From Armatimonadia bacterium (lineage in GTDB: Bacteria; Armatimonadota; Zipacnadia; Zipacnadales; UBA11051), in the NCBI GenBank assembly GCA_039683575.1, contig JBDKRC010000094.1, positions 1-19,541 on the forward strand: a stretch of 19,541 nt of DNA. Reading direction: 5' to 3'. A program made the position numbers and the translations under genes. Below are positions 1,152 to 19,036 of the stretch, piece by piece. Numbering within the stretch: the stretch's first letter is position 1; each line of letters opens with the position of its first letter. The notes below the pieces were generated by a model. That model saw only the letters and a program-made list of their open reading frames with translations, was not told the DNA's origin and ran no database searches.

Positions 1152-1209
1152 GTCAGGGAGAATGGCTGGGCCGCTGTGAGATCGCAGACGATCTTCGCGC
1201 GGCCCCTCC
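1152..1209 (-). repeat. REP-like family B variant with nested CAGA-loop hairpin
   Basis: gggccg...cggcccctcc arms, degenerate tail gtcagggagaatggc, internal hairpin gagatcg-caga-cgatctt at 1178-1195. Confidence 0.7.
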
Positions 1210-1225
1210 TGTGAACCGTTGGGGG

Positions 1226-2431
1226 CTACTGCCCTTTCACCTTGCCCATCAGCCAGTCGGTCAAGACCTGGGCCATCACCACGTGGCCTTCGGCGTTGGG
1301 GTGGGCCATGTCCGCCATGTAGCGGGCGAGGCCATCGCGGCCCTCTTGCTTGAGGCGCTCGGGCATGTCGCAATACTCCAGCCCAAGCCTCTTGCTGACG
1401 TCGCGCACGACCTGCGCGAAATCATCCATCATGACATAGCGCGGGCCCGCGCCGGGGATCGTCGCGATGGGTACGATGGCCGCTTTGCCGCCGGTGGCGT
1501 CGGCGACGCGCTGGATATAGTCTTCCAGGGCAGCGGCGAACTGCGCGGCGGACCACTGGTTGCTCTTGTCGTTGTAGCCGTAGAGCATTGTTACCAGGTC
1601 CGGGGCCTCGCCCTGGAAGTCGCGGGTGACCCAGGCGCGGGCGTCCGCCAGTTTCGCCCCGCCGACCGCCCGGCTCTCGCAGGTGATCTGCTGGTTGCCC
1701 GTCGCCTCGCGCAGCTTCGCCTGCAGCACAACCGCGTAGCGCTCGCTCCCCATGTCCTTGAGGCCGGTTCCCGCCGTAATTGAGTCCCCCATGCAGATGA
1801 TCCGCAACGGCTTGCCTTCGCGCAGGAGGGTGATGACATCCTGCAGCGGGCGGGGCTTGCGGTGGGGCGACGGAGGCGGCACTGACGCGACTAACTGAAC
1901 ATCATCCACCGAGTAGCTGTGCGGCGGGATACGCGCATTGTTGTGAGTGATGTTCCAGCGCGTTCCGAGCCGCAAGGTCTGGATGCCGGACGGCGGTAGC
2001 GCCCCAAACTGCCCGATGCCGCCCACCTGGCCCTCGGCAATCCAGTCGGCCCAGGGCACGGTGTACTGCTGCCACTCGGTGGAAATGAGCGGGAAGAAGA
2101 AGACGTACATGTAGCCGGAATTAGAGCCAGTCCCGCCGATGGCGAGGCTGCCCCATTGGGTCGAACCGTCCCCTTTGGCCCAGAAGCTCACCCCTGCGTA
2201 CTTGTCCCAGTCGGCCGGAGGAAAGGTGGCGCTGATGGTGGCGGACACCTGGCCCGGCATGGTGACCTTGATGGCTCCGGTGCCCTGATGGGCGTCCGGC
2301 GCCTTCTCGAAAGCCGCCGGGGGTTGGGTGGCCTTCCAGCCGTCGAGGTTCTCGAAGTCGCAGAGGATTTCGGCGGCAAGGCAGTGGGTCAGGCAGAGCA
2401 TCGCCAGAGCGACAGCGGTCAGGTATTTCAT
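1226..2431 (-). CDS. Secreted SGNH/GDSL hydrolase with N-terminal CBM11-like carbohydrate-binding domain
   Basis: ATG at 2431 with AGGAGG RBS. Signal peptide MKYLTAVALAMLCLTHCLA. DWDKYAGVSFWAKGDGS is CBM11-like. SGNH blocks GDSIT, GG, YGYND, DMAHPN. Confidence 0.85.
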   Translation of the reverse strand: MKYLTAVALAMLCLTHCLAAEILCDFENLDGWKATQPPAAFEKAPDAHQGTGAIKVTMPGQVSATISATFPPADWDKYAGVSFWAKGDGSTQWGSLAIGGTGSNSGYMYVFFFPLISTEWQQYTVPWADWIAEGQVGGIGQFGALPPSGIQTLRLGTRWNITHNNARIPPHSYSVDDVQLVASVPPPSPHRKPRPLQDVITLLREGKPLRIICMGDSITAGTGLKDMGSERYAVVLQAKLREATGNQQITCESRAVGGAKLADARAWVTRDFQGEAPDLVTMLYGYNDKSNQWSAAQFAAALEDYIQRVADATGGKAAIVPIATIPGAGPRYVMMDDFAQVVRDVSKRLGLEYCDMPERLKQEGRDGLARYMADMAHPNAEGHVVMAQVLTDWLMGKVKGQ

Positions 2432-2480
2432 GGCATTGCCTCCTAGGTTGCGGGTGGTATTTCGCCGTGAGGGGGTGCGG

Positions 2481-2891
2481 ATTCCTCCCTGGGGGGAGGG
2501 GCTGGCGGGGGTTGGTCGGTGATAACGGCTGGGCCGGCTGAAGCTCGGCCCCTCCGGAGAGGCGGCAAGCGGAGGCGGACGGGAGCGGAAACGGGGACAG
2601 TCACGCATGACGCTGTTGCGTCGCCCTGAACGATGAAAAGTGACAGACGCCCGAGCGGGCAAGGATGCCCGCGCTCCAAACGGCCCGTCACCCCCACAGA
2701 CCCCGTTTTCTCGGTGAGGTGAGGCTTGGTCGGGGATAACGGCTGGGCCGGATGCGCGGTGAGGCTGCGCATTCGGCCCCTCCGGAGAGGCGGCCGGGGG
2801 GATCGCAGATAGCGGCGGGCCGGCTGAAGCTCGGCCCCTCCGAAGAAACGGCCGGCGGAAACGGCCGGCGGGGTACGAGCCCCCGCCCTAC
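2481..2891 (-). repeat. Cluster of REP-like palindromes (three family B, one family C, plus other types)
   Basis: Family B at 2515-2555, 2729-2783 (longer internal stem) and 2802-2841. Family C ggcggggtacgagcccccgccctac at 2862-2891. gcgggcaaggatgcccgcgctcc at 2655-2677. ggggacagtcac...gtgacagacgccc at ~2593-2652. cctccctggggggagg at ~2484-2499. Confidence 0.85.
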
Positions 2892-2902
2892 AGCGGAAAA
2901 GG

Positions 2903-5768
2903 CTAGAGGCTTGAGGCGGACTCGAGTAGGGTGCGGCGGAGGGTTTGGACGGCGTTGGGGTCACGGTTGTATTCGGTTAGTTTGCCGGCGGGGCCGGAGA
3001 TTTCGGTTATTGTTTTGTTGTAGAGGGCGCGGGCGGCGGATTTGTTTTCGCTACGGCTTCTGGTGATTTTGCGGTCGAGGGCGCGGAGCATTTCGTAATC
3101 CTCGAAACCCTCTCGCATTCTCTCCCATCTTGGCGACGCGATCGGCTTGCGGTCGCCCGGATAGACTATGAAGAGGTCGCCGGGGGCGTACTTGCCGTCG
3201 CCCTCGGGCTTGTTCCAGACGTCAGCGGGCCAGTTGAGGTAGGACCAGCGCAGGAGGCCCTGGAACTGTTCGCGCCAGCAGATCCAGCCGATGGCGCGCT
3301 GCTCGATGGCTTCGGAGGTGATGAAGCTGTTGGGGCGGTCAGGATGGCAGCAGATGTAGGTCTCGACGAGGCGTCCCTGCTCGCGGAGTTCTTGGGCGAA
3401 GGCGGGGTCGTAGACGTCATCGCGGAGTTTGAAGACGAAGCGGTCGATGTCCACCGCGAGGGCGCGGGCGGATTTGAGGTTGTCGAGGGCGCAGGTGGTG
3501 CGGAGGGCCGGGTCGGCGTTGCGGAGGACCTGGCGCGCCTTGTGGAAGCGGTCGAGAGTGGGGTGGCCGTAGGAGTCCTGGGGCTCGTCGGTCGGGCAGA
3601 TGTAGAGGCGGGAAAGCCAGCCCTTCTCGCGGCAGTGGGCGGCGAGGGCGCGGCCGAAGGCGGTCCAGAGGGTGTCGAATTGTTCATCGCCGGGGTTGGC
3701 AGTGAGCTGTTGCGCTTTGCCGGTCGCGTCGGTGTAGGCGATCCGGGTGTCGCCGCGGCCATCGAACATCTGCAGGTATTCGATGAGGCCGCGGATGCCG
3801 ACGCTGTCGCAGAGCTCCACGTAGCGGTCGAAGCGGTCGAAGTTGAATTGCCACTGGCCATCGGCAGTGAGGCGCCAGTCGAAGTGTCCCCGGCCAACCT
3901 GTACGACGCTCTCGCCGTGGGCGGCGAGGTCCTGCAGGAAAGTCTTCACGATCCCCCACCACTCGTCGCTCCAGTCGGGCACATTGTAGGCTTTGGAGAG
4001 GCGGCCCATGGCTTGCCAGAAGTCCACGCGGAACTCCCACTGAGACGGGTCGGGCAGCAGGAGGTTGTGGACTACCACTTCGAGCGGGAGTGTGGCTTTG
4101 TCGCCGGAGGCATCGGTGACGGTGAGGGTGCCCGAGTAGGTGCCGGGGGCGGCTTCGGTGGGAGAGACCACGGTGAGCCAGAGGGCGCGGGACTCCCTGG
4201 GGGTGGTGCTGAAGCCGTCGGCGGGGAGGTCGCGCAGGACATCGGGCCAGCGGCGCAGTTGCTTCTGCGGGTCCATGTGGCCGACGGCGGGGACGTAGTC
4301 AACGAGGCGGAGGCCGACGGTGGGGACGGCGGCGCCGGGGCCGGTGAGAGGCGAGACCTGGGCAGTGAGGCGCAGGGCCTCTTTACCGAAAGGGCAGCAC
4401 CACCACCTGGAGGGATTCGGTCTCGTTGCGGCACATGTCCACGCGAGCGGAGGTGGCGGGCTCGAAGGCGAGGTCCTCGGGGAAGATGTGAACATCAGAA
4501 GGAGCGGCGGCGAGTGTGAACTTCGCGCCGGGGCGCTCGGCCGTCTTCGCGGTCTGGATCTGCTTTTGCAGCATCTCAGCCTCTCCCTTCAGGCGCAGCG
4601 CGAACTCAGCGAGTTCCTCGAGTTCGGAGCGCTCAAGCTTCTGGCGGTCCCGGTACTGGGTGACGAGGGCGCGCCACTGGACGGTGAGCGCGTCGAGGTC
4701 GCCCTGCAGGGACTTCTTGTTGTCGCTGTCGGGCAGGGACATCCAGCCCTTGGTCGCGGCGCCGAGAGCCCGCTCGACGGCGGCAATCTGCGGAGCGACT
4801 TCGGGAGTGACTACGCCATATGGCGAGGACCGCCACACGGTCTTGCCGGAGGCGTCGGTGAGAGAGAAAGCGACGGTCGAGAAGCCGTCCTGGTAGATCG
4901 AGTAGGGGATGGTCTGGGACTGGCGGCTGGAGGGCGGGATGGTGATTTTGGTGGCGCCGAAGAAGTGGCCATGCTTGTCGCGGCCCATGACGCGGACGTT
5001 GATCTTGGCGGTGGCGGACTGGGAGGAGAAGTTGCTGGCGACGATCTGGGCGGTGTTGGGGCCGAGCCACATGCTGCCGAGGGCGGCGATTTCGAGGGCG
5101 AGGGGGGACTCGCTGAAGGTGAGGCTGCCGAAGTTGCCGATCTCGTGGAAGCTCTTGAGCTTGCGGTCCCAGGAGCTGACCTCGCCGGTCGAGGCGACGT
5201 GACGGGCGGCTGAGAAGCCCCAGGAGACGCCGGGGGCGGGCGGGAAGTCGTTGGCGAAGGGAAGCTCGAACTCGACGGTCCAGCCGTCGGCGGTGGTGGC
5301 CGTGCGGGCCTTCCAGCGGAAGTCAGCGGCGGCGTCCTTCATGAGGGCGTCGTACTGGACTTCTTTGGAGTTGACGGCGAGATGGATGTAGCCCTTGCGC
5401 TGATCGTCGGTGTCGAAGAAGAGCTCGAGGTCGTCGTCCATCCAGACCTGGCCGTCGCGCTGGGTGGCGTCGGCTTTGAGGCCGGCGGGATTGGGGTCGT
5501 TGAGGGCGGCGGCGATGTACAGGCAGTGGTTGTCGTACATGACCGAGAGGGAGGTGCGGTACTGGGGCTGGCCCTGCCCGCCGACGAGGACGAAGGGTGA
5601 CAGCGGGACCGCGCGGGCCCATTCGCCGGGCTCGATGATGCCGTCGATGGTGGGGGCGGCGGAGACTCGCGGGACGTACGCAAGCGGGGGCGCGTAGAAA
5701 CGGGTGTCCTGGGCGAGGGCGGGCAGGACGACGAGGATCAGGAGTGAGATGATAAGGAGCTTACGCAT
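2903..5768 (-). CDS. Secreted CBM9-like + DUF4091/GH123-like glycoside hydrolase, interrupted by a +1 frameshift at ~4389-4391
   Basis: ATG at 5768 with GGGAGG RBS and a signal peptide. CBM9-like motifs (APTIDG...EW, YDNHCLYIAA, DDLELFFD, GWTVEFELPF). ORF1 ends RNETESLQVVVLPFR* at 4383. The +1 frame continues GKEALRLTAQVSPL...TDEP...PGDLFIVYPG...SPRWERMREGFEDYEML (DUF4091-like C-terminus) to the stop at 2903. Joined length is about 954 aa. Confidence 0.8.
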
Positions 5769-5821
5769 GGGGCGCCTCCCGGTGTTTTGGTTGCAGTTGG
5801 ATGATAGCGGGATCAACGGCG

Positions 5822-5975
5822 GGTGACCCCGTTGGGGTCAAGAGATGGCAATGGTCCGTCACCAGGGGTTTCACCCCTGGCTGTATTCGGTGACCCCGTT
5901 GGGGTCAAGAGATGGTAATGGTCCGTCACCAGGGGTTTCACCCCTGGCTATATTCGGTGACCCCGTTGGGGTCAA
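5822..5975. repeat. Tandem 67-bp repeat (2.3 copies) of double-hairpin REP-like units (family A)
   Basis: ggtgaccccgttggggtcaa starts at 5822, 5889 and 5956 (period 67). Each full unit also contains ccaggggtttcacccctgg. The two full units differ at 2 positions. Confidence 0.9.
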
Positions 5976-6014
5976 AAGAGCTACGACGGAGGCTCAGGCC
6001 ACAAGGTGCGGCGG

Positions 6015-6893
6015 TTACAGGGCATCATTCTCCGCAGCGCTTGCTTTCCCCTTCATTTGGGCGAGGGCCATTTGGTAGGCTTCGCGGCGCGGGAGGAGGC
6101 CGAGGTCGGCGATTATCTGGGCGATGTCGCGGGCACCGAGGCCGGCGGTTAGCATACGGTCGAGGGCGGAGATGAGGCCGGGCGGGGCGAGGGGGGCCGG
6201 TGGCGGCGGAGCGCCGGAGATGATGAGGACGAACTCGCCCTTCGGCTCGCGCTCGGTGAAGATCGCGACGAGGTCGGCGGCAGTGCCGTGGAGGAGTTCC
6301 TCGTACTGCTTGGTGAGCTCGCGGGCGATCATCATGGGGCGGTCGCAGAAGACTTCGGCGATGGCCTGGAGGGTATCGAGGACGCGGTGCGGTGCCTCGT
6401 ATAGCGCGAGGGTGTAGGGTAGGTCGCGCAGGGCGGTCAGGAATTCGTGGCGGTCGCCGGATTTGCGCGGGGCGAAGCCGGCGAAGAGGAAGCGGTCGGC
6501 TACCATGCCCGAGACGCTGAGGGCAGTGATAACGGCGGCGGGGCCGGGGATGGGGACGACACTGACTTCGGCCTCGACGGCGGCGGTGACCAGGTCGCGG
6601 CCGGGGTCGGCGATGCCGGGGGTGCCACCATCGGAGACGTAGGCGAGGGTTTGGCCGGAGGCAAGGTGGGAGATCAGGCGGGCGAGTTTCTTCGGGTCGC
6701 TGTCGCCGTGGAAGGACTCGAGCGGCTTGTGCAGGCCGAGGTGTGAGAGGAGGGTGCGGGCGCGGCGAGTGTCCTCGGCGACGACGAGGTCGGCGTGGCG
6801 GAGAGTGTCAATGGCGCGGGCGGAGAGGTCGGAGAGGTTGCCAAGAGGGGTGGCGACGAGGTAGAGCGTTCCCGATTGTGGTTGCGCTTCCAC
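6015..6893 (-). CDS. rsmI: 16S rRNA (cytidine1402-2'-O)-methyltransferase
   Basis: GTLYLVATPLGNLSDLSARA, AEDTR, SDGGTPGIADPG, IPGPAA, YEAPHR, ARELTK-YEE, KGEFVL. GTG start with AGGAGG RBS. Confidence 0.95.
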   Translation of the reverse strand: MEAQPQSGTLYLVATPLGNLSDLSARAIDTLRHADLVVAEDTRRARTLLSHLGLHKPLESFHGDSDPKKLARLISHLASGQTLAYVSDGGTPGIADPGRDLVTAAVEAEVSVVPIPGPAAVITALSVSGMVADRFLFAGFAPRKSGDRHEFLTALRDLPYTLALYEAPHRVLDTLQAIAEVFCDRPMMIARELTKQYEELLHGTAADLVAIFTEREPKGEFVLIISGAPPPPAPLAPPGLISALDRMLTAGLGARDIAQIIADLGLLPRREAYQMALAQMKGKASAAENDAL

Positions 6894-6923
6894 CTGTGAG
6901 CACCCCTCCTTTGGATTGACGGA

Positions 6924-7202
6924 CCCTCACCCCGGCCCTCTCCTTGAGGCCGCAGACGGTCTCCGGGGAGAGGGGGGTGGAGGGCTTGTTTGCGATAGCG
7001 GTGGCGGGCGGGAGGCCCTCATGGCGCGGATTGGGCCATGGCGGGCGGACCACGGTCCGCCCCTACGGCGGTACGACGGTGGTCGGTGATGACGGCAGGG
7101 CCGGCTAAAGCTCGGCCCCTCCGGGAGAATGTGAGTTGTCGGTGATAACGGCGGGGGCCGGCTAAAGCTCGGCCCCTCCGGGGGACTACGGTCCGTCCCT
7201 AC
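6924..7202. repeat. Cluster of REP-like palindromes
   Basis: ccctcaccccggccctctcc...ggggagaggg (6924-~6977) with nested hairpin at 6946-6963. gggcggaccacggtccgcccctac at ~7043-7066. Family B at 7082-7122 and 7138-7179. Degenerate GTAG element at 7180-7202. Confidence 0.85.
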
Positions 7203-8794
7203 TGGATCTGGAAGTTGCCCATGTTGCCGAAGCCGCCCATGGGGTTGGCGGGTTGCTGGGCGCGGTAGTCGGCCAGCCACTTGCTGACTTGCGGGGCTAG
7301 CGTGGTGTCGCCCATGGCCTTGAGCTTGCCCTCGACCTGCATGTTGGTGCCGAAGTTCGCGGTTGTGTAGCCGCTGGCGCGGTCGAAGGCTTCCTTGTAC
7401 TGCGCGAGGGCCTTGGCGCGGTCCTTCTGCTCTCCGTACAGGTCGCCAAGCTCGAGGTGGACGCGCGGGGAGGCCGCGCCCTCGGGGAGGGCCGTGAGCT
7501 GGTCGACGAGCTTCGTGGCCTCAGCCATGTTCTTCTGTTCCTTGTAGAGCTGCGAGAGCTCCCAGACTGCCGAGCCGTTGGAGGGGTTCATCTTGACGGC
7601 TTCCTGCAGCTTGAGCATCGCCTCGGGCTGCTTCCCCTCATCCATGAGACGATAGGCCAGGAGCTCGGGGTCGAAGACTTCGATCTGGGCTTCCTTGGTC
7701 AGCTTCTCTTTGTACTCGCCCCAGGCCTTGGACTTGGCCTGCGCGAGCGCGGAGTCGCGGAGCATCTGCTTGTTCTTCTCGAAGTCCTTGGGCAGATTGT
7801 CGCGGCGGCCGGTAACCTTGATGATGTGGTAGCCGAAGTCGGTCTTGACGACGTCGCTGACCTGTCCGACCTGGAGCTTGAAGGCGGCGTCGGCGAAGGC
7901 CGGGGTCATGCGATCACGGGTGAACCAGTCGAGGTCGCCGCCCTTGGGGGCGCTGGGGCAGGCTGAGTTGTCCTTGGCGAGCTTGGCGAAGTCGGCGCCG
8001 GCCTTGATCTGGGCGAGGAGTTCCTCGGCCTTCTTCTTGGCAATGGCATCGCCGTCAACCGCAGGGGCGGCCTGGCCGGGCTTGGCCTGCTTCGCGGCCT
8101 GCTCGGCGCACTTCTTGGGGTCGAGCAGGATGTGGCTCGCCCGGACTTCGGCGAAGCTATCCTTGAGCTGCTCGTCGGTCATCGTGACCTTGCTCTCGAT
8201 CTGCTCCTGCAGCTTCTTCTCGGCAACCTGCTGGCGGAGAGCGTCGGTGTCCTTGAAGGCTTCCTTGCGGAGGTCGGACTTGTACTTGTCGAGGGTCAGG
8301 TTCTTCTTCTTCAGGTAGTGCTTGAGCTCGCGCTGCTCGGGGAAGCGCTGATCCATGATCTGCTGGATCTGGGTGTCTTTCTCGCGCGCGAGGTCGGCGC
8401 CGGAGACCTTGATGTGCTCCTTCTTGACGGCCTGGCGCATGACGATGCCGTCAATGAGCTGGGTCAGGAGGCCGGACTTCATCCACCGTTCCTGGGTGGG
8501 GTCCATCTCGGGCATGCGCTCGCGCTGCATCGCCATGTTGGCTTCGAAGAGCTCGCGCGGGATCTTCTCGCCGTTGACGCGGGCGACGACGGGCGTCATG
8601 CGGCCCTGCGCGGCGCCCTGACTGCCCTGGCCGCTGCGACTAGGCCCACCGAAGTAGGTGTAGGCGCCCACGACGAAGATGAAGATGATCAGGTAGAAGA
8701 CTAGTTCCGCGGGGCTGGGGAGGGGAATGTGACGCTTTCCGGCCTTCACGCGTAGTTTGTTGCGGAAGACCTTCCTCATGCGGACGATGGACAT
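7199..8794 (-). CDS. Membrane-anchored peptidyl-prolyl isomerase/foldase (SurA-N + parvulin/PpiC + C-terminal TPR-like repeats)
   Basis: ATG at 8794 with AGGAG RBS. TM segment LVFYLIIFIFVVGAYTYF. VVARVNGEKI (SurA-N). VRASHIL...DFAKLAK...GGDL...F...KTDFGYHIIKV (parvulin). TPR-like helices AVKMNPSN / VHLELGDLY. Confidence 0.9.
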   Translation of the reverse strand: MSIVRMRKVFRNKLRVKAGKRHIPLPSPAELVFYLIIFIFVVGAYTYFGGPSRSGQGSQGAAQGRMTPVVARVNGEKIPRELFEANMAMQRERMPEMDPTQERWMKSGLLTQLIDGIVMRQAVKKEHIKVSGADLAREKDTQIQQIMDQRFPEQRELKHYLKKKNLTLDKYKSDLRKEAFKDTDALRQQVAEKKLQEQIESKVTMTDEQLKDSFAEVRASHILLDPKKCAEQAAKQAKPGQAAPAVDGDAIAKKKAEELLAQIKAGADFAKLAKDNSACPSAPKGGDLDWFTRDRMTPAFADAAFKLQVGQVSDVVKTDFGYHIIKVTGRRDNLPKDFEKNKQMLRDSALAQAKSKAWGEYKEKLTKEAQIEVFDPELLAYRLMDEGKQPEAMLKLQEAVKMNPSNGSAVWELSQLYKEQKNMAEATKLVDQLTALPEGAASPRVHLELGDLYGEQKDRAKALAQYKEAFDRASGYTTANFGTNMQVEGKLKAMGDTTLAPQVSKWLADYRAQQPANPMGGFGNMGNFQIQ

Positions 8795-8909
8795 GCAATC
8801 GACTCCTGAAAAGGCAAAGTGAAGTAGTGCCAAAGATATAACGGAATACTGCCCTGAGCGGTTCCGGAGGCCCCCGGTACGGCTCTGAGAGCGCGGGAGG
8901 GCGTCGTTG

Positions 8910-8968
8910 GTCGCAGACAACGGCAGGGCCGACTGTGAGACCGCAGACGGTCTCGATTCGGCCCCTCC
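8910..8968 (-). repeat. REP-like family B variant with nested CAGA-loop hairpin
   Basis: gtcgcagacaacggc tail + gggccga...tcggcccctcc, internal gagaccg-caga-cggtctc at 8937-8954. Confidence 0.75.
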
Positions 8969-9058
8969 GAAAAGCGGAGACGGTTAGCGCGGGCACAAGG
9001 GGAAACGGAGCCGGCATGGCCGGCTCCCGGGGGGACCGCGCAGATCGAATCCCGGGGC

Positions 9059-9087
9059 ATTATATACTGGTGGGAGTTCAATGACAA
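9059..9087 (-). promoter_or_regulatory. Sigma70-type promoter directed toward the foldase gene
   Basis: Minus strand TTGTCA-17 bp-TATAAT, a near-consensus match in a GC-rich background. Confidence 0.75.
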
Positions 9088-9261
9088 GGGTGAGGCAGGG
9101 GTCAGGTTTCAGGGATCAGGGTTCAGGAAAGGCAACGGCGGGGGAACGGCAACGGCAACGGCCATAGGAGGCGAGGAGGAGGACGGGTGGGGGGCGTCTA
9201 ACTGGTTAGGGGGACGTGAGAGGGGACAGGGGGAGATTGCGGCGCTTGTGAGGTGAGCATT

Positions 9262-10113: not shown

Positions 10114-10175
10114 GGAGGCGGGAACGGGTACGGCGGGAACGCGGGAACAACGGCGGGGGTGTGGCTGCCGTGTGT

Positions 10176-10307
10176 TGTCATCCTGTGCAACGCGAAGGAT
10201 CTCCCGGGGCGGGGGGGGGATCCTTCGCTTTGCTCAGGATGACACGCCTGTTTGGGCTGCGAGAGGGGGCTGGGAAGAGATCCTTCGCTTTGCTCAGGAT
10301 GACACGC
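10176..10307. repeat. GTCATCCTGAG-type palindromic repeats (one inverted pair plus a direct copy) between convergent genes; possible terminator role
   Basis: tgtcatcctgtgcaacgcgaaggatc (10176-10201) is inverted to gatccttcgctttgctcaggatgaca. The 29-mer gatccttcgctttgctcaggatgacacgc is identical at 10219 and 10279. Confidence 0.85.
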
Positions 10308-10335
10308 TGGTCCGTATAGGCAGGCGGCTTCTCCC

Positions 10336-11019: not shown

Positions 11020-11063
11020 CTGATTCCACCTCCCCACTCACCACAGCATACGCCACACAGACT

Positions 11064-11188
11064 GGGCGGAGGCTCGTACCCTGCCGCCCCCCGGTGGGGG
11101 CGCGCTGCCGAAGCAGACGAGACGCCCGCACTACGCGATGTAGGGTGGCCGTAGATAACGACCGGCGGGGTACGAGCCCCCGCCCTAC
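11064..11188. repeat. Inverted pair of family C REP-like elements (REPIN-like doublet) enclosing another GTAG-type palindrome
   Basis: gggcggaggctcgtaccctgccg (11064-11086) faces cggcggggtacgagcccccgccctac (11163-11188). gcagacgagacgcccgcactac lies between them. Confidence 0.75.
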
Positions 11189-11210
11189 AGCCGTCACGAC
11201 CCACAGGTAC

Positions 11211-12341: not shown

Positions 12342-12369
12342 TGGTCAGGGTTGCCTATGACGTTTGTTA

Positions 12370-12410
12370 TCGGTGATAACGGCCGGCGGGGTACGAGCCC
12401 CCTGCGACGC
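12370..12410 (-). repeat. Truncated family C REP-like element carrying the start of the nested hairpin
   Basis: cggtgataacggccggcggggtacgagccccctgcgacgc differs by 2 nt from 18929-18968. Confidence 0.8.
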
Positions 12411-12413
12411 CTC

Positions 12414-13508
12414 CTAGCCTACGCTGCGGGCGGACAGGCGGTGGAGACGGTGCAGTTCGGCCGCGTCCTTTTCCTCGTGGCCGCCGGTGGCTTCCTGAAC
12501 CGGATGAATCCTGCGGAAATTGAAGCCATGGGCCAGGAAGGCGTTGCGGGCGCGCTGGAACTGCCGATCGTCTTCGTAGAAGCCGACGATGGCACCGCCG
12601 GAGCCTGGGAACTTGGCCGGGAGGCCCAGTGACCTCGCGAGTTCGATCATTTCAAGGTTCTTGGCGCCGATCCACTCGTCGCCGTAGAGCTTGCGGCGCA
12701 GGTCGAAGTTGGCGTTCATGAGACTGCCAAGCGTGTCGTAGTCACGAGCGGCGAGGGCTTCGTACGCCTGATCGGTGTATTCGGCAAAGCGCTTCATGCC
12801 CGTGACGACCTCGGGGTCGCCGCTATGGAAGCGGGCGGCGACGAGGCTGTGAATCTTGCCAGAGTCGGAGGGCTCGTCGAGATAGCCAAGGTACAGCGGC
12901 GGAAGGAGGCTCATGTCCATCGGCTCGTAGTAGCCATGGCCGTCGCGCTCCAGAAGGTCCTTGCTGAAGTCCATGTAGACCATGCCGCCGTAGGTTTGCA
13001 CCACACGATCCTGCAGCCCCGCCTGGATGTGCAGTTCATTCGTTTCGACCTCCAGCGCCAGAGTCGGCTGCAGGGGGCGCGGCAGTACCCTTTCGTCGAC
13101 CTCCAGCAGGCGCATGAGAGCCTGGAGCGTGGCGACGGTGATGGCGCTGGAGCCGGCTAGGCCGACCTGGCGCGGGATATTGATGTCATACTCCAGTGTG
13201 AACTTGCGGTTCGGCAGCCGTGCGTGCTTCTGCGCGCAGTACTCGTGGAAGCGTTTGCAGGTTGCGTACAGCAGGCGCATGCCTCCGTAATAGCCGTCGA
13301 GGGAGGCCGTGTAGACGAGGTCCTGCAGGTCTTTGAAGCAGAACGGGTCGAACTTCGGGTGAGGGATAATCTCGATCTGAGGGCTCTCCCAGGCGGTTAC
13401 GGAGGCGGTGAAGTCATCGATGAGAACTGCGATGGTCTTGCCGCCGAAACCGTCTGAGGGATTGCCAATCAGCCCAACGCGAGCACCAACGTGCTGATGG
13501 AAAACCAT
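12414..13508 (-). CDS. GHMP-family sugar kinase, glucuronokinase-like
   Basis: ARVGLIGNPSD, IPRQVGLAGSSA (GHMP ATP loop), AGLQDRVVQTYGGMVYMDF, NFDLRR, AKFPGSGGA. These match plant glucuronokinase motifs as I recall them. Confidence 0.8.
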   Translation of the reverse strand: MVFHQHVGARVGLIGNPSDGFGGKTIAVLIDDFTASVTAWESPQIEIIPHPKFDPFCFKDLQDLVYTASLDGYYGGMRLLYATCKRFHEYCAQKHARLPNRKFTLEYDINIPRQVGLAGSSAITVATLQALMRLLEVDERVLPRPLQPTLALEVETNELHIQAGLQDRVVQTYGGMVYMDFSKDLLERDGHGYYEPMDMSLLPPLYLGYLDEPSDSGKIHSLVAARFHSGDPEVVTGMKRFAEYTDQAYEALAARDYDTLGSLMNANFDLRRKLYGDEWIGAKNLEMIELARSLGLPAKFPGSGGAIVGFYEDDRQFQRARNAFLAHGFNFRRIHPVQEATGGHEEKDAAELHRLHRLSARSVG

Positions 13509-13817
13509 AGAAACACCACCCCGACACCAGGTCTAGTACGGCTGCATCGCGTCTCTCCCGGTTGTTGGAAATACACATGCCGCACTCGCCGATTTTCCGG
13601 TTGCTGCGTGAGTTAGCTTACACGGTAGAAGAGAAAGAAGGAATCGGGTGGGACCTGATAATGCGGTCAGTGGTGACCTAAGGAAGGAGCGCGGTCTCCT
13701 GAGAGACGGGGCGGTAAAGGACGACTTTCCGAGGGGAAATGGAATGATTCAAAGGATGTTCTTCTACATCTTCCGGCGGTGGCAGAGTCGAGGGGAGGTG
13801 TCGGCTGGCGCAGGTCC

Positions 13818-13896
13818 GCCCGGCTGGAAGCCGGGCTCTGTTGGCGGAATCTCGCGGCTGGAAGCCGCTTGTACGACAAGGATGTATCCGCACCAC
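13818..13896. repeat. REP-like palindromes with a cggctggaagccg core
   Basis: gcccggc-tggaa-gccgggc (13818-13836) and gcggc-tggaa-gccgc (13854-13868), followed by acaaggatgtatccgcaccac. Confidence 0.65.
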
Positions 13897-13952
13897 TTGC
13901 TATCAACTACAGCTTCGCATTGAATGGGATCCGGCGGCTCGGAGGGCGTGGC

Positions 13953-14810
13953 TCAGCGTTGGTCGCGGCGGCAGAAGTTGTTGGTGCCGCAGGAGGTGTT
14001 CCACATGGGACGGGAGTGGATGGCGTCGTAGGGGCACTTCTCGCACTCCAGGCAGCCTATGCAGGCGTGGCCGTTGAGATCGCGGCGGGGGTCGATGCCC
14101 TGGGGGCAGATCTTGATGCAGTACATGCAGTCAGTGCACTTGGAGCGCTCGTAGTCTATGCGCCAGGCGCTGTAGCGGTGGAAGAGGGAGAAGATGGCGC
14201 CGAGGGGGCAGATCACGTTGCAGAAGGGGCGGCGGTAGAAGACGGCCCAGGTGAGGATGATGATCATGAGCGAGATCTTCAGGTACCACAACCAGCCGAT
14301 CTCCGCGCGTAGCTCGGGGTGCAGGAGGGGCTGGGGGATGGCCCCCTCGATGGCGCCCATGGGGCAGAGTTTGGAGAACCAGGCCTCAGAGGTCAGGAAC
14401 GGGATGATGAAGACGAGAACGGCAAGGACGAGATAGCGGATGTACCAACTCCAGCGGGGGGGCCGGCGGATGGCGCGGCGGCCGAGCAGTTCCTGAAACC
14501 AGCCGAAGGGGCAGAGCCAGCCGCACATCATGCGTCCGAAGAGGGCTGAGAAGAAGAGCAGCGTGCCGAGGACGTAGAGCGGGATGACAGCCCACCAGGA
14601 GGAGCCGCCCGCGAGGCCGAGGCGTGCGGCGCCGGCAGAGTTTTGCAGGGCGCCTATGGGGCAAGCGAAGTTGGCGCTGGGGCAGGCCCAGCAATTGAGG
14701 ACGGGGTAGCAGAAACCCTTAAAGCGGCTGAGGAAGAGGGAGTTGGCGAAGACGAAGGAGACGAGCTGGACATACCAGCGGCTATAGAGCCAGCGAGGGG
14801 GTCGGTACAT
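13953..14810 (-). CDS. Membrane 4Fe-4S binding protein (NapH/MauN-like polyferredoxin)
   Basis: CYPVLNCWACP, CPIG, GRMMCGWLCPFGWFQE, RPFCNVICPLGA, CTDCMYCIKICP, CIGCLECEKCP, and several TM segments. Confidence 0.92.
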   Translation of the reverse strand: MYRPPRWLYSRWYVQLVSFVFANSLFLSRFKGFCYPVLNCWACPSANFACPIGALQNSAGAARLGLAGGSSWWAVIPLYVLGTLLFFSALFGRMMCGWLCPFGWFQELLGRRAIRRPPRWSWYIRYLVLAVLVFIIPFLTSEAWFSKLCPMGAIEGAIPQPLLHPELRAEIGWLWYLKISLMIIILTWAVFYRRPFCNVICPLGAIFSLFHRYSAWRIDYERSKCTDCMYCIKICPQGIDPRRDLNGHACIGCLECEKCPYDAIHSRPMWNTSCGTNNFCRRDQR

Positions 14811-14816
14811 GCGGCG

Positions 14817-14957
14817 TCACCGGCCCAATCCGATGCAGGAGGTGCAGAGGGTGTGGGCCCACTGGGTGACTATGGCGAATTCGCCGCGGGAGACGCCGAT
14901 GGTGGTGATGGCGAGAGCCAGAAGAAAGGCGGGAATCCAGAGGTGTCGCGCTACCAG
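14817..14957 (-). CDS. Small membrane CXXC protein (CD1871A-like); probable CTG start
   Basis: Hydrophobic helix followed by RGEFAIVTQWAHTLCTSCIGLG, directly upstream of the polyferredoxin gene, the usual context as I recall it. Start uncertain: CTG at 14957 lies 9 nt after GGAG. Confidence 0.7.
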   Translation of the reverse strand: MVARHLWIPAFLLALAITTIGVSRGEFAIVTQWAHTLCTSCIGLGR

Positions 14958-14988
14958 CTTTCGCCGCTCCGCAGACCGCTTCGTGCCT

Positions 14989-15777
14989 TCAGAAAGCTGA
15001 GAGATATTCGAGGTCCTTCCTGAGCGACTGCTCTTTGTTATCCCCCTCCTCGGCGGCGAACTCGACAGCGACATGGCCGGCGTAACCGTTAGCCTTCAGC
15101 CGTCCGAGGAGCGAGGGGTAGTCAACGAAGCCATCGGCGATCTGGACACGCTTGTACTGCCCGTCGCCGTTGCCTTTGACGAAGTTCTGGCAGTGCATGT
15201 GCACCACGTAAGGCAATACTTCCTCCAGGCGCTGCAGCTGGTCTTCCTGGTCGTAGTTGCCGACCTGGAAGTTCAGGCGGAAGTTGGGGCGATTGACCTC
15301 TTCGACGAGGCGCCGGGCGGTGGGGCCGGTGTCGGCGAGGGTGCCGTCGTGCATTTCGGCGGCGAAGACGACGTTCATCTTGGCAGCACGGTGGCAGGCT
15401 TGCTGGGCTTCTTCGATGACGCACTTCCAGACTTCGGGAGTGGCCTTGGACGAGCCGACGTCGGAGGCCCAGACGCGGACGATGGGCGTGCGGAGGCCGT
15501 GGGCGTTGTGGAGAGTGTCAACGAGGGTGACGTTGTCGTCCTTGTGCTGGGTCTTGCCGAAGTAGAGGTAGGAGCCGAAGACAGGGAGCTTCAGACCGCG
15601 CTCCTCGGCTGCCGCGCGAATGCCGCGGATGCGCGATTCATCGTACTCCTCGGGCACGTGAGGCTCGCGGCCCCATAGCTCGACAGCCTGGAACTGCACG
15701 CGCTGGGCGGCAGCAAGGGCGACCTCGAGGAGCTTCTCGCGATAGCTGATGGTGCAAAGACAGACTTTCATGGTCAC
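14989..15777 (-). CDS. Sugar phosphate isomerase/epimerase (xylose isomerase-like / AP endonuclease 2 TIM barrel)
   Basis: FQAVELW, AAEMHDGT, RLNFQ, VVHMHCQN, GFVDY, GYAGHVAVEF. GTGA overlap with the upstream stop (alternative ATG at 15771). Confidence 0.85.
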   Translation of the reverse strand: MTMKVCLCTISYREKLLEVALAAAQRVQFQAVELWGREPHVPEEYDESRIRGIRAAAEERGLKLPVFGSYLYFGKTQHKDDNVTLVDTLHNAHGLRTPIVRVWASDVGSSKATPEVWKCVIEEAQQACHRAAKMNVVFAAEMHDGTLADTGPTARRLVEEVNRPNFRLNFQVGNYDQEDQLQRLEEVLPYVVHMHCQNFVKGNGDGQYKRVQIADGFVDYPSLLGRLKANGYAGHVAVEFAAEEGDNKEQSLRKDLEYLSAF

Positions 15778-16829
15778 TCTATTCCCACAGGTTGTCCCAC
15801 GCGGGCTGACTCGAGAGCGGCGAGGAGGACTTTGGTGTTCTGGAGGCCATCTTCAGGCTTGATGAATGGTGCCTTGCCCTCGATGACGCAGTTGGCGAAA
15901 TAGAGAATGCTCTCCACGCCGAAGCCAGTGGGCTTGCCGTGGATGTCCATGACGACATTGGTATCGGGGAACATGACGCCGCGGGTGCTGCCGAAGGGGC
16001 GCAGTTCGTTATCGCTGTAGAACTCGACAGTATCGCTTTTGACGACGCTGAAGAGGGCCGTGCCCTCGGAGCCGACGAACTCGCACTTGAGGTCGCAGAC
16101 CGTGGGGAAGGCGTTCGACATGATCCAGCAGTTCTCGATATGGGCGACGCCACCACCCTTGAATTCGCAGATGGTGTGGAAGAAGTCGGGAGTGTCCAGG
16201 CCGCGCTCTTTGAGCACGCGGGAGCGCGAGATGGAGTAGACGCGCTCGACTTCGTCATCGAAGAGCCAGCGCACGAGGTCGAGGGTGTGGGAGCCGAGGA
16301 ACCACAGGACCGAGGAGTCTTTGCTCCAGCTGAGCATGCCCGTCGGGACGTAGATGGTGTCGTTGAGGCGAATGGACATCATCTGCGGCTGGCCCATCTT
16401 GCCGGCGACAATCTGGTTCTTGAGGGCCACAAACGCAGGGTTGAAGCGATTGTGGAAGTCCACCATGAGGGTGACTTTGTTGGCCTTGGCGGCGGCAATC
16501 ATGGCTTCACAGTCTGCGACCGTGGTGGCCATGGGCTTTTCGATGAGGATATGCTTGCCTGCTTCGGCAGCGGCGACGACGATTTCGCGGTGGAGGAAAT
16601 CCGGGGTGACGATCGAGACGGCCTTGATCTCGGGATTGGCGAGAAGCTCGTGGTAGTCGGTGGTGAAGGTCTCAGCACCGTACTGGGTGGCGCGCTCGCG
16701 GCCAAGCTTTTCGTTCTTATCACAGGCACAGACGAGGCGGATGTTGGGGGCGGAAGAGTATGCCAGGAGGTGAGTCTCACCCCAGACGCCAGTGCCGATA
16801 ACGCCAAACCCGACCTGCTCGCAGGACAT
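15774..16829 (-). CDS. Gfo/Idh/MocA family NAD(P)-dependent oxidoreductase
   Basis: GVIGTGVWG, IVTPDFLH, AGKHILIEKPMA, FHNRFNP, GSHTLDLVRWL. AGAGGT RBS. Confidence 0.95.
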   Translation of the reverse strand: MSCEQVGFGVIGTGVWGETHLLAYSSAPNIRLVCACDKNEKLGRERATQYGAETFTTDYHELLANPEIKAVSIVTPDFLHREIVVAAAEAGKHILIEKPMATTVADCEAMIAAAKANKVTLMVDFHNRFNPAFVALKNQIVAGKMGQPQMMSIRLNDTIYVPTGMLSWSKDSSVLWFLGSHTLDLVRWLFDDEVERVYSISRSRVLKERGLDTPDFFHTICEFKGGGVAHIENCWIMSNAFPTVCDLKCEFVGSEGTALFSVVKSDTVEFYSDNELRPFGSTRGVMFPDTNVVMDIHGKPTGFGVESILYFANCVIEGKAPFIKPEDGLQNTKVLLAALESARVGQPVGIE

Positions 16830-16904
16830 GATGCCGCACCTCTATGCTTCGCTTCGCCAAGCGTGACATTGGGCCGATCCAAGGCCACTGCGGGGCCAAT
16901 TTGG

Positions 16905-16934
16905 ATTATAAGCGATAGCAAGAGGGGGAGTCAA
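16905..16934 (-). promoter_or_regulatory. Sigma70-type promoter for the Gfo/Idh/MocA operon
   Basis: Minus strand TTGACT-18 bp-TATAAT, about 75 bp upstream of the ATG at 16829. Confidence 0.7.
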
Positions 16935-16976
16935 TTCTGGGGGAGGAGGGCAGAATGGAGACGGGGGCGGCGCCGG

Positions 16977-17157
16977 AATGGGGACAGACCCCAATTTCGC
17001 GCGAACCTCTGTGGCGGCGGGAGGGAAGGTTGCGAGATCAGGGTCAGTCTCCACCATGGGGGAGGGGGGTAGCGCCGCAATGGGGACAGACCCCAATTTC
17101 GCGCGGACCTCTGTGGCGGCGACAGGGAAGGTTGCGAAATCAGGGTCAGTCCCCATT
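16977..17157. repeat. Two tandem copies (period 102 bp) of a GGGGACAGACCCC-ended inverted-repeat element
   Basis: aatggggacagaccccaatttcgcgcg...ggttgcga(g/a)atcagggtcagtc(t/c)cc starts at 16977 and 17079. Confidence 0.88.
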
Positions 17158-17166
17158 GCTGGGGTA

Positions 17167-17208
17167 GTCGGTGATGACGGCGCGGGCCGGCTGAAGCTCG
17201 GCCCCTCC
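17167..17208 (-). repeat. REP-like family B
   Basis: gtcggtgatgacggcgcgggccggctgaagctcggcccctcc. Confidence 0.85.
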
Positions 17209-17217
17209 GGGAGAGGG

Positions 17218-18588
17218 TTAGCGGGGTTTGGGGAGGGGGCCTAGTTCGATTTTGCCGATGAAGTTGCCGTGAGAGAGGGTGGGGGCGTTTGGTTCGGGGG
17301 CTTGTTCGAGCTTTTCGTAGACTACGTACAGGACATTGCCGAGGGCGGTGAGGTCCGCGTGGAAGTTGTACTTGCTGTCGTCCACGTAGCGGATGGTCTC
17401 GACGCCGGGGACGCGGGGGCTCAGGGTGGCGAGCATCAGAGCCGCATATCTGCCGGCGTAGCTCAAGTATGGGGAGTCGGAGCTGTAGACGAGATAGAGG
17501 TTGGGGCCGAGCTGCTGGCCCGCCGGCATGAAGCTGCGGCCGAGGTCCGCGAGCTTGCGGGCGCGGTGGAACATGGCGCCGTCGAACTGGACTGCCAGCA
17601 GAGGTTCGTAGTCCGGGCGGTCAGGGACGGGAGTGCGGTCGGAGTAGGCGACGAGGAGCTCTTCCGTAAAGACCGAGAGCGACGGGAAGGCGGCGTCCTC
17701 AGGCGTATCCGCGAAGACCGGGGCGGTGCCGGCGAGGGCCATGGTGTGAGGCGTCAAGCCGAAGCGCGCGCGGCCCTTTTCGTCCAGTTTCCCGACGAGC
17801 GCCCAGATCTGATCGCCATAGGATGCCATGGCTACGGCACCAGGAAGCGGAACCAGGTCGCCGACCCTCTGCTCTCCATGTGGATCGTAGTGCAGAAGCA
17901 TCGAGTTGCCATTGACGACGTAGAGAACGTAGAGCTGGTCGGCAAGAATTGCGACGTCGAGGCAGGTGAGGGGCTGATCGGCCTCGGCGGCGAGAAGCTC
18001 GCGAGTCCATACGACCGAGAAGTCGGCAGGGCGCAGGCAGGAGAGATACAGATCACGGGCGTGGGTTTCGACCACATAGAGCGCGTCCTCGACGGCCCAC
18101 TTGTCCTCGTCTTTTTTGGCGTCGGGGTTCTTGACGTAGCGCCGCGTGCCAGCCGTGATCCGGGGAACGGACTGGTCGCGGTCGAAGGTGCCGAGGCGGG
18201 CGGTAGGCCAGAGGTTGAGCATCCCGACGCGACGGGCTTCGAGGGGCGCGGTGCGAAGGCGGAGTTTGGCCTGGAAGGGGCGGGCCTTGCGCCCGGGCGG
18301 CGGGGGCGGGGGCTCACCGAGAAGACGGAGGGTGAAGTCGTAATAGGTGCTGTGCTGCAGTCCGACGACAGTATAGGTCGGGCCGGGGAGATTTGTGGCG
18401 GTGACGAAACGGTCGCGCGGCCAGGAGCGGTGGCGATAGGTAAGCTCATACAGGCCCGGAGGACCGGTCCAGCGCAGGACGACCGAGGTGGGCTCGAGGC
18501 GCGCAACCTCGAGCGTCAGCCGGGTGGGGGTCTGAGGATGGCCCGCGGTGGAGCAGAGCAGGATTAGCAGCCACGCCGCCTTGTGCAT
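17218..18588 (-). CDS. Exported protein with N-terminal fibronectin type III domain and an unassigned beta-rich C-terminal region
   Basis: ATG at 18588, 2 nt after the upstream stop. Hydrophobic N-terminus. FN3 pattern TSVVLRW...YELTY...YTVVGLQHSTYYDFTL, then a poly-Pro linker. Confidence 0.7.
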   Translation of the reverse strand: MHKAAWLLILLCSTAGHPQTPTRLTLEVARLEPTSVVLRWTGPPGLYELTYRHRSWPRDRFVTATNLPGPTYTVVGLQHSTYYDFTLRLLGEPPPPPPGRKARPFQAKLRLRTAPLEARRVGMLNLWPTARLGTFDRDQSVPRITAGTRRYVKNPDAKKDEDKWAVEDALYVVETHARDLYLSCLRPADFSVVWTRELLAAEADQPLTCLDVAILADQLYVLYVVNGNSMLLHYDPHGEQRVGDLVPLPGAVAMASYGDQIWALVGKLDEKGRARFGLTPHTMALAGTAPVFADTPEDAAFPSLSVFTEELLVAYSDRTPVPDRPDYEPLLAVQFDGAMFHRARKLADLGRSFMPAGQQLGPNLYLVYSSDSPYLSYAGRYAALMLATLSPRVPGVETIRYVDDSKYNFHADLTALGNVLYVVYEKLEQAPEPNAPTLSHGNFIGKIELGPLPKPR

Positions 18589-18590
18589 GG

Positions 18591-18899
18591 TCAGAGGGAC
18601 CTGATGGTGATGGTGTACTTGCCGGGCGGGAGGGTCACTTCGAGAGTCTGTGCCTGCTTGTTGTACGAGACGTCGGTTTTCTGTTGAAGGCCGGTGAGGC
18701 TGATGAGGCCGGGGGTTACCGGGCACCAGAGCTTCACGGTGGCGGCCTGAGTGAGTTCGAGTTGCGCCTGGTAGGTGTTCCCGGCGAGGCGCAGGCCGAC
18801 GCTTACGGGGGCAGAGGACTGAGTCAGCGGTGCGGAAGCCTGGGCCAGCAAGGGCGAGGCGAGAACCAGAAGGATGAGTGCGAGGCAGATCGGTCTCAT
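18591..18899 (-). CDS. Small secreted hypothetical protein
   Basis: GGAG RBS, signal peptide MRPICLALILLVLASPLLA, beta-strand-rich mature region, codon usage typical of neighbouring genes. Confidence 0.75.
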   Translation of the reverse strand: MRPICLALILLVLASPLLAQASAPLTQSSAPVSVGLRLAGNTYQAQLELTQAATVKLWCPVTPGLISLTGLQQKTDVSYNKQAQTLEVTLPPGKYTITIRSL

Positions 18900-18926
18900 T
18901 GGCAGGCTCCGGAAGATGGTTGCAGC

Positions 18927-18987
18927 GTCGGTAATAACGACCGGCGGGGTACGAGCCCCCTGCGACGCAGACGTCGCTACGCCCTAC
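18927..18987 (-). repeat. Family C REP-like element with a 20-bp nested hairpin insertion
   Basis: gtcggtaataacgaccggcggggtacgagccccc[tgcgacgcagacgtcgctac]gccctac. Confidence 0.85.
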
Positions 18988-19036
18988 GGCGAGGCGGCTG
19001 ACGCCGTCTCGAAAGAGAGTGTGGACTGTCCACACG

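Follow-up and report, generated by a model that had tools for sequence, protein, structure and literature searches.

The stretch of DNA analysed here (19,541 nucleotides (nt), referred to as the window) is contig C94 of an Armatimonadia genome assembly, G000, and contains four intergenic hairpins with a CAGA loop, each nested within a larger palindrome. These hairpins belong to a module of 18-22 nt, in which TG precedes two complementary stem arms of 6-7 bp around a C[A/G]GA loop; it is present in ~130 copies in G000 and occupies fixed sites inside repetitive extragenic palindromes (REPs) that also exist in empty form. On balance, the evidence makes it probable that this mini-REP module was inserted several times, presumably by a single-strand transposase of the REP-associated tyrosine transposase (RAYT) type, and was then co-amplified with its hosts. 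The source assembly G000 comprises 6.23 Mb in 352 contigs (63.5% G+C, 96% complete), of which C31, C80, C196, C237 and C331 are further contigs mentioned below; G002 and G003 denote sister genomes of the same genus. Host repeat families are labelled B, C, D, E and F, and the module stem types M1 (GCGACG-like) and M2 (GAGACCG-like).

Anatomy of the hairpin module

The four window hairpins were found where an earlier note on this DNA had placed them, all on the + strand and each with a T before the stem, resulting in a TG start, and direct reading of the sequence confirmed that a larger palindrome encloses each of them. The copy at 18961-18980 is, as had been claimed, an exact addition of 20 nt relative to two empty family C copies of the window. 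The modules, their hosts and these empty copies are the following.

1177-1195, + strand: M2 module TGAGATCG-CAGA-CGATCTT (gagatcg-CAGA-cgatctt, 1178-1195), loop 1185-1188; distal stem-loop of a family B REP.
1168-1209, + strand: host REP of family B, form B2, GGGCCG ... CGGCCCCTCC; encloses the 1178 hairpin.
6945-6963, + strand: M2 module TGAGGCCG-CAGA-CGGTCTC (gaggccg-CAGA-cggtctc, 6946-6963), loop 6953-6956; nested in the host stem, -15.9 kcal/mol.
6936-6974, + strand: host palindrome of family F, CCCTCTCC ... GGAGAGGG; encloses the 6946 hairpin.
8936-8954, + strand: M2 module TGAGACCG-CAGA-CGGTCTC (gagaccg-CAGA-cggtctc, 8937-8954), loop 8944-8947; fold of -16.2 kcal/mol, z = -3.8.
8926-8968, + strand: host REP of family B, form B2, GGGCCG..CGGCCCCTCC; preceded by the leader variant TTGGTCGCAGACAACGGC (8907-8924).
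18961-18980, + strand: M1 module TGCGACG-CAGA-CGTCGCTAC (gcgacg-CAGA-cgtcgc, 18962-18977), loop 18968-18971; REP C carries it as a clean 20-nt insert in its 3' arm.
18943-18989, + strand: filled REP of family C, GGCGGGGTACGAGCCCCC[insert]GCCCTACGG; the palindrome GGCGGGGTACGAGCCCC..GCCCTAC spans 18943-18987.
2867-2893, + strand: empty REP of family C, GGCGGGGTACGAGCCCCCGCCCTACAG; aligned to the filled copy.
11164-11190, + strand: empty REP of family C; aligned to the filled copy.

Folding of 1163-1210 yielded a single nested hairpin of single-stranded DNA (-16.4 kcal/mol, z = -4.1). Within the window alone, the 8-mer CGCAGACG occurred four times against 1.68 expected, a number reached or exceeded in 18 of 200 shuffles and thus not significant, and the test was therefore moved to the whole assembly. 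There, CAGA was flanked by a perfect 6-bp stem in 81 of 45,612 occurrences, compared with 18-33 in four slid-arm controls, for which the 3' arm was taken 20-80 nt away, and CGGA in 58 of 58,974 occurrences, compared with 20-30 in the corresponding controls. CAGA/TCTG was the third commonest tetraloop, accounting for 82 of the 3051 hairpins with a perfect 6-bp stem and a 4-nt loop. A listing of the CAGA and CGGA hairpins revealed that their excess is made up of copies embedded in a few repeat families, and a T preceded a stem starting with G in 80 of the 141 perfect hairpins with either loop. All module copies lie inside REPs: those listed hairpins with C[A/G]GA-type loops that had been assigned to no family turned out to be degenerate C or D copies, and the remainder were coding-sequence background.

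The earlier note had described an invariant CG-CAGA-CG loop. This holds for the four window copies, while across the genome the loop follows the consensus C[A/G]GA with one-base decay variants, as is evident from the varying loop counts: CAGA 45, CGGA 28 and CAGG 5 among GCGACG-type modules, with CCGA, AAGA and others at 1-3 each, and CAGA 9 and AAGA 2 among GAGACCG-type modules. The closing CG..CG pair likewise turns into TG..CA or AG..CT in some stem variants. The claim that stem variation preserves pairing was fully borne out, since the stems GCGACG, GCGATG, GCGGTG, GCGAAG, GAGACCG, GCGGACG and CCGCACG all pair perfectly with their partner arms, and at least six stem versions with preserved Watson-Crick pairing could be distinguished. 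Together, the GCGACG and GAGACCG classes comprise 103 copies with C[A/G]GA-like loops, to which family E adds ~24. Some of the stems contain GGTCTC or GACGTC; a role as restriction sites was rejected on inspection, as these sequences are not present in all stem types.

Filled and empty host repeats and their junctions

Host copies were pulled out by means of anchors in the host repeats, with no condition imposed on the sequence between the anchors, and in families C, D and E they fell into clean length classes, so that filled and empty counterparts do exist, as had been supposed. In family C (~307 copies in G000), 249 copies were empty (172 + 77) and 58 were filled with 20 or 21 additional nt. 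Of ~258 family D copies, 239 were empty and 19 carried exactly 20 additional nt, which were the module in 17 cases. Family E (GTCATTCTGAG-CGAA-GCGAAGAAT) comprised 139 empty copies and about 24 with a hairpin of 18-19 nt; in 44 further copies of this family, an unrelated addition of 10 nt with the consensus GAGCGTCGTTTGCG replaces CGAA. Family F was represented by seven regular-expression matches, two of which were short and empty, while three, together with a tandem module pair at C80:6872-6912, bear modules of two stem types. Family B comprised 117 short copies (B0) and ~15 module-bearing ones (B2), and its 23- and 27-nt length classes held 28 + 54 = 82 copies, 10 of the 27-nt class being B2. 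Most of these 82 copies showed a form designated B1, in which a conserved 9-nt GGTGAGGCT loop is combined with a different long stem that covaries between copies, again a constant loop with variable stems. Overall, about one in seven host copies was filled, occupancy being ~10-20%.

The hosts themselves have the features of REPs. The reverse complement of family C, CT-GTAG-GGCGGGG-GCTCGTA-CCCCGCC, corresponds to the canonical REP layout, and family D is organized as GCGGGC-loop-GCCCGC-ACTACGCG, its major form reading CGC-GTAG-TGCGGGCGTCTCGCCCGC on the GTAG strand. Both families are short palindromes with a 5' GT[AG]G foot, and both show the copy number, extragenic location and doublet arrangement of REPs, the window copies being intergenic. 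A leader, GGTCGGTGATAACGGC, is common to families B, C and D. According to the folding analysis, the module extends the host stem in B and F and, in C, folds into a hairpin of its own next to the host hairpin, which is then shorter. The 20-mer module hairpin has a stability of -7.8 kcal/mol, and as the insert pairs with itself, the host hairpin stays foldable.

Read on the GTAG strand of the hosts, the insert consists of G(T/A)AG, a palindrome and CA, and lies between GC and GGG in family C, in family D, in inverted copies of the module in family C and in the REP C of G002. The module at 18961-18980, for instance, reads GTAG-CGACG-TCTG-CGTCG-CA on the - strand. In REP C of both G000 and G002 the 5' foot of the module is GTAG; family D and the inverted copies in C show GAAG instead, and minor variants GGAG or GCAG. 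Placement of the junction is ambiguous by 1 nt, and in C and in the major D form it lies three bases past the host's own GTAG. Comparison of filled with empty copies revealed no target duplication beyond this single ambiguous nucleotide, and the combination of terminal inverted repeats and target-site duplication that characterizes miniature inverted-repeat transposable elements was not found. The loop-insert form of C and families B, E and F have other junctions, and most of them keep a CA adjoining the hairpin. The order G(T/A)AG, palindrome, CA corresponds to that of a minimal REP adjoining a CA cleavage dinucleotide.

Evidence for independence of module and host

The fill state does not track the host subfamily. 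In the four commonest REP C haplotypes, 30 of 139, 6 of 70, 4 of 38 and 2 of 18 copies were filled, the last of these haplotypes being defined by a compensatory C..G pair whose linkage is otherwise full (266 G..C, 20 C..G and 3 mispaired copies) and whose variable base directly adjoins the insert. Filled family D copies were distributed over five loop subfamilies (AGGGAT, AAGGAT, AGGAT, GGGGAT and GAGAC). Among 62 head-to-head REP C doublets, both halves were empty in 47 and one half was filled in 15, while none had both halves filled; the doublet spacer is asymmetric, and among the 15 the filled half was on the leader side in eight and on the other side in seven, every spacer being different. 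GCGACG-type modules were present in hosts of families C, D and F, and GAGACCG-type modules in families B and F of G000. Furthermore, six inverted copies, TGCGGTG-CAGA-CACCGC, occupy the other arm of REP C, where the local junction, CCCC^GCC, is again the same.

These observations bear directly on ordinary REP subfamily variation as an explanation, in which one-off insertions, deletions or template switches were followed by RAYT amplification with no dedicated insertion process, and in which the apparent independence from host subfamily would be due to recurrent point mutation or to very short gene conversion between REP copies. That the compensatory double-change subfamily is also filled speaks against it, since a conversion tract would need to stop exactly at the edge of the insert, which the variable base directly adjoins, and so does the finding that either half of an asymmetric doublet can be filled. 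Subfamily variation could account for the fact that each host mostly has its own stem type and for the lack of solo module copies, and other internal variants of REPs do exist, namely B1 and the +10 nt form of family E; a loop flip in G002 between CAAG and CTTG could also be produced by template switching in a palindrome. It does not readily accommodate the same module in unrelated hosts, nor two different modules at exactly the same REP C site in different species, and we regard it as rather unlikely.

The latter finding came from the sister genomes. Whereas the exact GCGACG 18-mer was present in 50 copies in G000 and in none of 40 relatives, REP C itself was found in 125 copies in G002, in 133 in G003 and in 111 in one genome of the same order. 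In G002 and G003, the identical REP C site is filled by a different module, TGAGACCG-CAAG/CGAG-CGGTCTCTAC, in 11 and 2 copies, respectively, with a stem of the GAGACCG type that occurs in families B and F of G000. The GAGACCG-type module of G002 is also located inside a GTGG..CCAC REP, including copies on both sides of a RAYT-like gene. Family B was found in G000 and G003 and was not found in G002. The module thus persists while its hosts change, the same stem sitting in differing host REPs across species. When the core GACGC[A/G]GACGTC was counted in 301 sampled genomes of the phylum, it was enriched only in G000 (77 vs 26 for the reversed control; next highest 19 vs 3 and 14 vs 0), and the expansion is thus lineage-specific. 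At least 120 loci matched the 18-mer in a scan of metagenomes. Of the 80 contexts examined, 5 were filled family D REPs; most of the others were apparent coding sequence, including one recurrent gene, and represent chance matches. Filled REP C with any stem was detected at four loci in a scan of genome contigs (two in an Armatimonadia metagenome-assembled genome, one in an Acidimicrobiaceae metagenome-assembled genome and one in Streptomyces).

A further explanation, which we consider improbable, holds that selection maintains the C[A/G]GA hairpin as a structural tag, that is, a protein binding site giving REPs an advantage in copying or retention, the loop having arisen by convergent selection and not by common descent. 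A loop consensus common to stems that differ at most positions would fit such a tag, as would the conservation of the GAGACCG stem between ~70%-identical genomes whose host REP families differ, and loop-specific recognition by RAYTs is documented (PMC8266576). The loop is, however, the most variable part of the module within each family, as seen from the counts given above (CAGA 45, CGGA 28 and many single-base variants), it is CAAG or CGAG in the sister species, and just ~10-20% of host copies bear the module at all; no candidate binding protein was identified.

Very improbable, in our view, is a role at the RNA level, as a transcript terminator, a stabilizer against 3' exonucleases or a processing site. 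In favour of such a role, the hairpins are stable, and E. coli REPs have been reported to affect mRNA stability and termination. Against this, no module orientation preference relative to genes was observed, with 31 modules pointing the same way as both neighbours and 31 the opposite way, which argues against a sense-specific RNA role. Moreover, no T-run follows any of the four window hairpins and no Rfam match was obtained at them, the sole match in the window being Acido-Lenti-1 (RF01687) at 972-1018 on the + strand (39.9 bits vs a gathering score of 37). This two-hairpin motif, annotated as a small RNA, occurs ~10 times in G000, with one copy directly beside an IS200-like Y1 gene (C331:37316-37654), and on account of this copy number and location it behaves like a transposase-associated repeat in this genome.

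Several observations weigh against insertion of the module as an independent unit. In family B, where the hairpin had been taken to replace the centre of the repeat, comparison with the short form B0 shows no clean insertion. No common target or end sequence was found in B, E, F or the loop-insert form of C, and the GTAG-like head, which is GAAG in D, is absent in B, E and F. No solo module outside a recognizable REP host was seen in G000, so that it was never observed to move independently. The G-rich strand carries 78 of 102 modules, a bias no stronger than that of the empty hosts (C 63%, D 80%, B0 77%) and therefore not module-specific; it supports a single-strand, replication-linked lifestyle of REPs in general and not of the module in particular. 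None of the seven Y1 genes of G000 is flanked by the module or by family C or D, and no REPtron arrangement was thus found for these two families, which is a weak absence because the assembly is fragmented and 96% complete. Finally, no same-locus pair of a filled and an empty copy was found: the three same-genus genomes share 66-73% identity in the window genes, the sister genomes (~70% identical) have no REP clusters at matching spacers, and the G002 spacers that match the window are short and REP-free. Mobility is therefore something that we infer. Of the earlier proposal of an ultra-small non-autonomous element targeting REPs, the discrete module and the filled and empty hosts in several REP families are borne out, and movement is the inferred part.

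Some related observations can be added here. The GC skew of G000 is unusually strong (mean absolute value 0.075 in 20-kb windows), and all REP families tested are biased to the G-rich strand (63-91%). Among the matches listed for Logan contigs, which are broken at REPs and have a depth of ~5x, no omission of 18-22 nt was seen at the four hairpin sites; a single contig of run X2, covering 966-2093, includes the 1178-1195 hairpin, and these contigs are uninformative on the fill state. The window genes are ordinary housekeeping and carbohydrate-use genes. Further members of the host families in the window are the following, the B0 copies having been obtained by host-anchor extraction.

7098-7121 and 7155-7178, + strand: empty family B copies (B0).
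2531-2554, 2817-2840 and 17184-17207: more B0 copies.
2745-2782: B1 copy of family B, GATGCCGAC-GGTGAGGCT-GTCGGCATT.
12388-12410, + strand: truncated filled REP C, with the core, then the 5' half of the module alone, then unrelated sequence.

Transposase genes, related systems and implications

A profile search of G000 yielded seven Y1_Tnp matches. One of these, C31:740-1222, scored 85.6 bits against NCBIfam NF047646 (REP-associated tyrosine transposase; cut-off 80 bits) and has family B (B0) doublets on both sides, which is the REPtron arrangement for this family; the same arrangement was found on contig C274 of G003. Further repeat families flank other Y1 genes of G000. No RAYT gene with the hairpin on its flanks, as looked for on the basis of the earlier note, was seen in G000; in G002, modules lie inside larger REPs on both sides of a RAYT-like gene, whose product scored 65.7 bits, below the 80-bit cut-off. 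At this locus (L072, G002:C166), the two flanking modules at 1293-1310 and 2034-2051 have opposite loops, CAAG vs CTTG, while the host REPs around them point the same way and empty copies of the same host REP adjoin.

Five single genes bracketed by two modules were also tested and none encodes a transposase, the products being a SurA-like peptidyl-prolyl isomerase, a major facilitator superfamily transporter, an MTTB-family protein, an RNase_H-superfamily protein and a fifth that matched nothing in Pfam. As a separate observation, an open reading frame of 447 aa near a contig end (169-1509 of locus L084, G000:C196:87000-88700), which matched no Pfam family at E <= 1e-5, has filled copies of REP C and REP D on its two sides. 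At 1058-1140 of the window, two copies of another repeat family, GGACGGAGCCTTTGCGCG ... CGCGCAAAGGCTCCGTCCCC, form an inverted doublet; this family is present as well on both sides of a RAYT-like gene on C237 (L004 1462-2100).

In the mechanism that we propose for the insertion of the module, it would be a minimal REP-type unit of 18-22 nt, reading G(T/A)AG, palindrome, CA on the other strand, that was probably inserted several independent times at fixed positions in the resident REP palindromes of this Armatimonadia genus, the cleanest insertion site being at the base of the REP stem, where GC meets GGG. The most likely agent would be a RAYT-type HUH/Y1 single-strand DNA endonuclease which recognizes the loop and the hairpin shape, and this enzyme may cut next to CA and transfer the piece into REP DNA exposed as a single strand at the replication fork. 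Once inserted, the module would extend the host stem, as in B and F, or make a side hairpin, as in C, and would then spread through the genome along with its host REP. RAYT-type cutting is proposed because the conserved loop, the interchangeable stems, the GTAG-like head and the adjacent CA match the published description of RAYT substrates. RAYTs are reported to cut next to the REP hairpin, at a CT or CA dinucleotide, with a guide role for GTAG, and for group 3 RAYTs certain loop bases are absolutely needed, whereas the stem is mainly structural (Corneloup 2021, PMC8266576). The group 3 substrates of Stenotrophomonas and Marinomonas are described as perfect palindromes with essential loop bases and a CT or CA cut beside the hairpin (PMC8266576); in sequence, the conserved loop and adjacent CA of the module resemble them.

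GTAG REPs and REPINs (inverted REP doublets) with their RAYT (TnpA_REP) are established biology (Nunvar 2010; Bertels and Rainey 2011; Di Nocera 2013, PMC3733652; Quentin 2018, PMC6006769), and the hosts described here fit this system, being intergenic palindromes of 25-45 nt with a CT-GTAG head, present in hundreds of copies, arranged head to head in doublets and flanking a RAYT gene. The module is likewise a short perfect palindrome, with a GTAG of its own in family C, and it compares with REPs in size and copy number (REPs are multicopy palindromes of 20-65 nt). Unlike GTAG REPs, it measures 18-22 nt, is never free-standing and always occupies a fixed site in another REP, and it combines a conserved loop with interchangeable stems and has no GTAG head in most hosts. 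CGTC-tagged REPs, which are described as having a terminal unpaired CGTC, a stem of 8-9 bp starting with A-T pairs and a CCA tail (Di Nocera 2013, PMC3733652), differ from the module, in which CGTC is found only in the paired 3' arm and the stems are GC-rich and of 6-7 bp. A link to the 'CnGA foot' given for class 3 TnpA_Y1 proteins (PMC6006769) was considered and rejected, as C[A/G]GA in G000 is a loop and not a 5' foot.

Elements of the IS200/IS605 family of insertion sequences (IS) and their transposase-less derivatives, palindrome-associated transposable elements, share with the module a recognition by hairpin on single-stranded DNA (for the module, as proposed here), oriented insertion, the lack of target duplication and a strand bias following GC skew. 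They have two different subterminal hairpins, separated by hundreds of bases, and their insertion takes place 3' of a defined tetranucleotide, whereas the module is a single hairpin of 18-22 nt that lacks the distinct left and right hairpins and the internal sequence of palindrome-associated elements. IS of the ISPpu9 type also use REP palindromes as specific landing sites; these are full-length IS110-family elements with a transposase of their own, unlike a 20-nt hairpin.

The closest precedent is found in Thermomicrobium roseum, and the earlier statement that no description of such an arrangement was known has to be amended, as Di Nocera 2013 (PMC3733652) reported GTAG-23 REPs inserted within small palindromes, CCGSSCC(n3,4)GGSSCGG, of which hundreds of empty copies exist. 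As in G000, a REP-type hairpin is located in a GC-rich small palindrome that is also present in many empty copies. That report consists of one sentence on one host type, and a search of the literature, including passages of Nunvar 2013 (PMC3686654), Quentin 2018 and Corneloup 2021 but not the supplements, which may hold REP catalogues, returned nothing more detailed than this sentence. New in the present case are the very small size, the conserved loop with swapped stems, the five hosts, the exact junctions, the occupancy figures and the exchange of modules and hosts across species.

The spread of REPs is still described as poorly understood (PMC8266576), one reason being that insertion into a unique spacer leaves no empty site for comparison. 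In G000 the landing sites are themselves repeats, and filled and empty forms can therefore be compared hundreds of times in one genome, which yields the exact junctions GC^[G(T/A)AG, palindrome, CA]^GGG, the occupancy of host copies and evidence for repeated events. Nested hairpins of this kind inflate intergenic palindromes and break short-read assemblies, and annotators should treat them as repeat structure and not as regulatory sites. The filled and empty REPs also offer short substrates of defined sequence on which the RAYTs of this genus could be assayed for cleavage and strand transfer. It is conceivable, though we hold it to be doubtful, that the C[A/G]GA hairpin is the smallest RAYT-driven transposition unit so far seen, a single-hairpin mini-REP of ~20 nt homing into GC^GGG of REP stems on single-stranded DNA. 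If so, this genome would preserve exact natural REP insertion junctions, unlike ordinary REPs in unique spacers, and these would suggest that the cut falls immediately behind CA and that a single REP hairpin, not just a REPIN doublet, can be a mobile unit.

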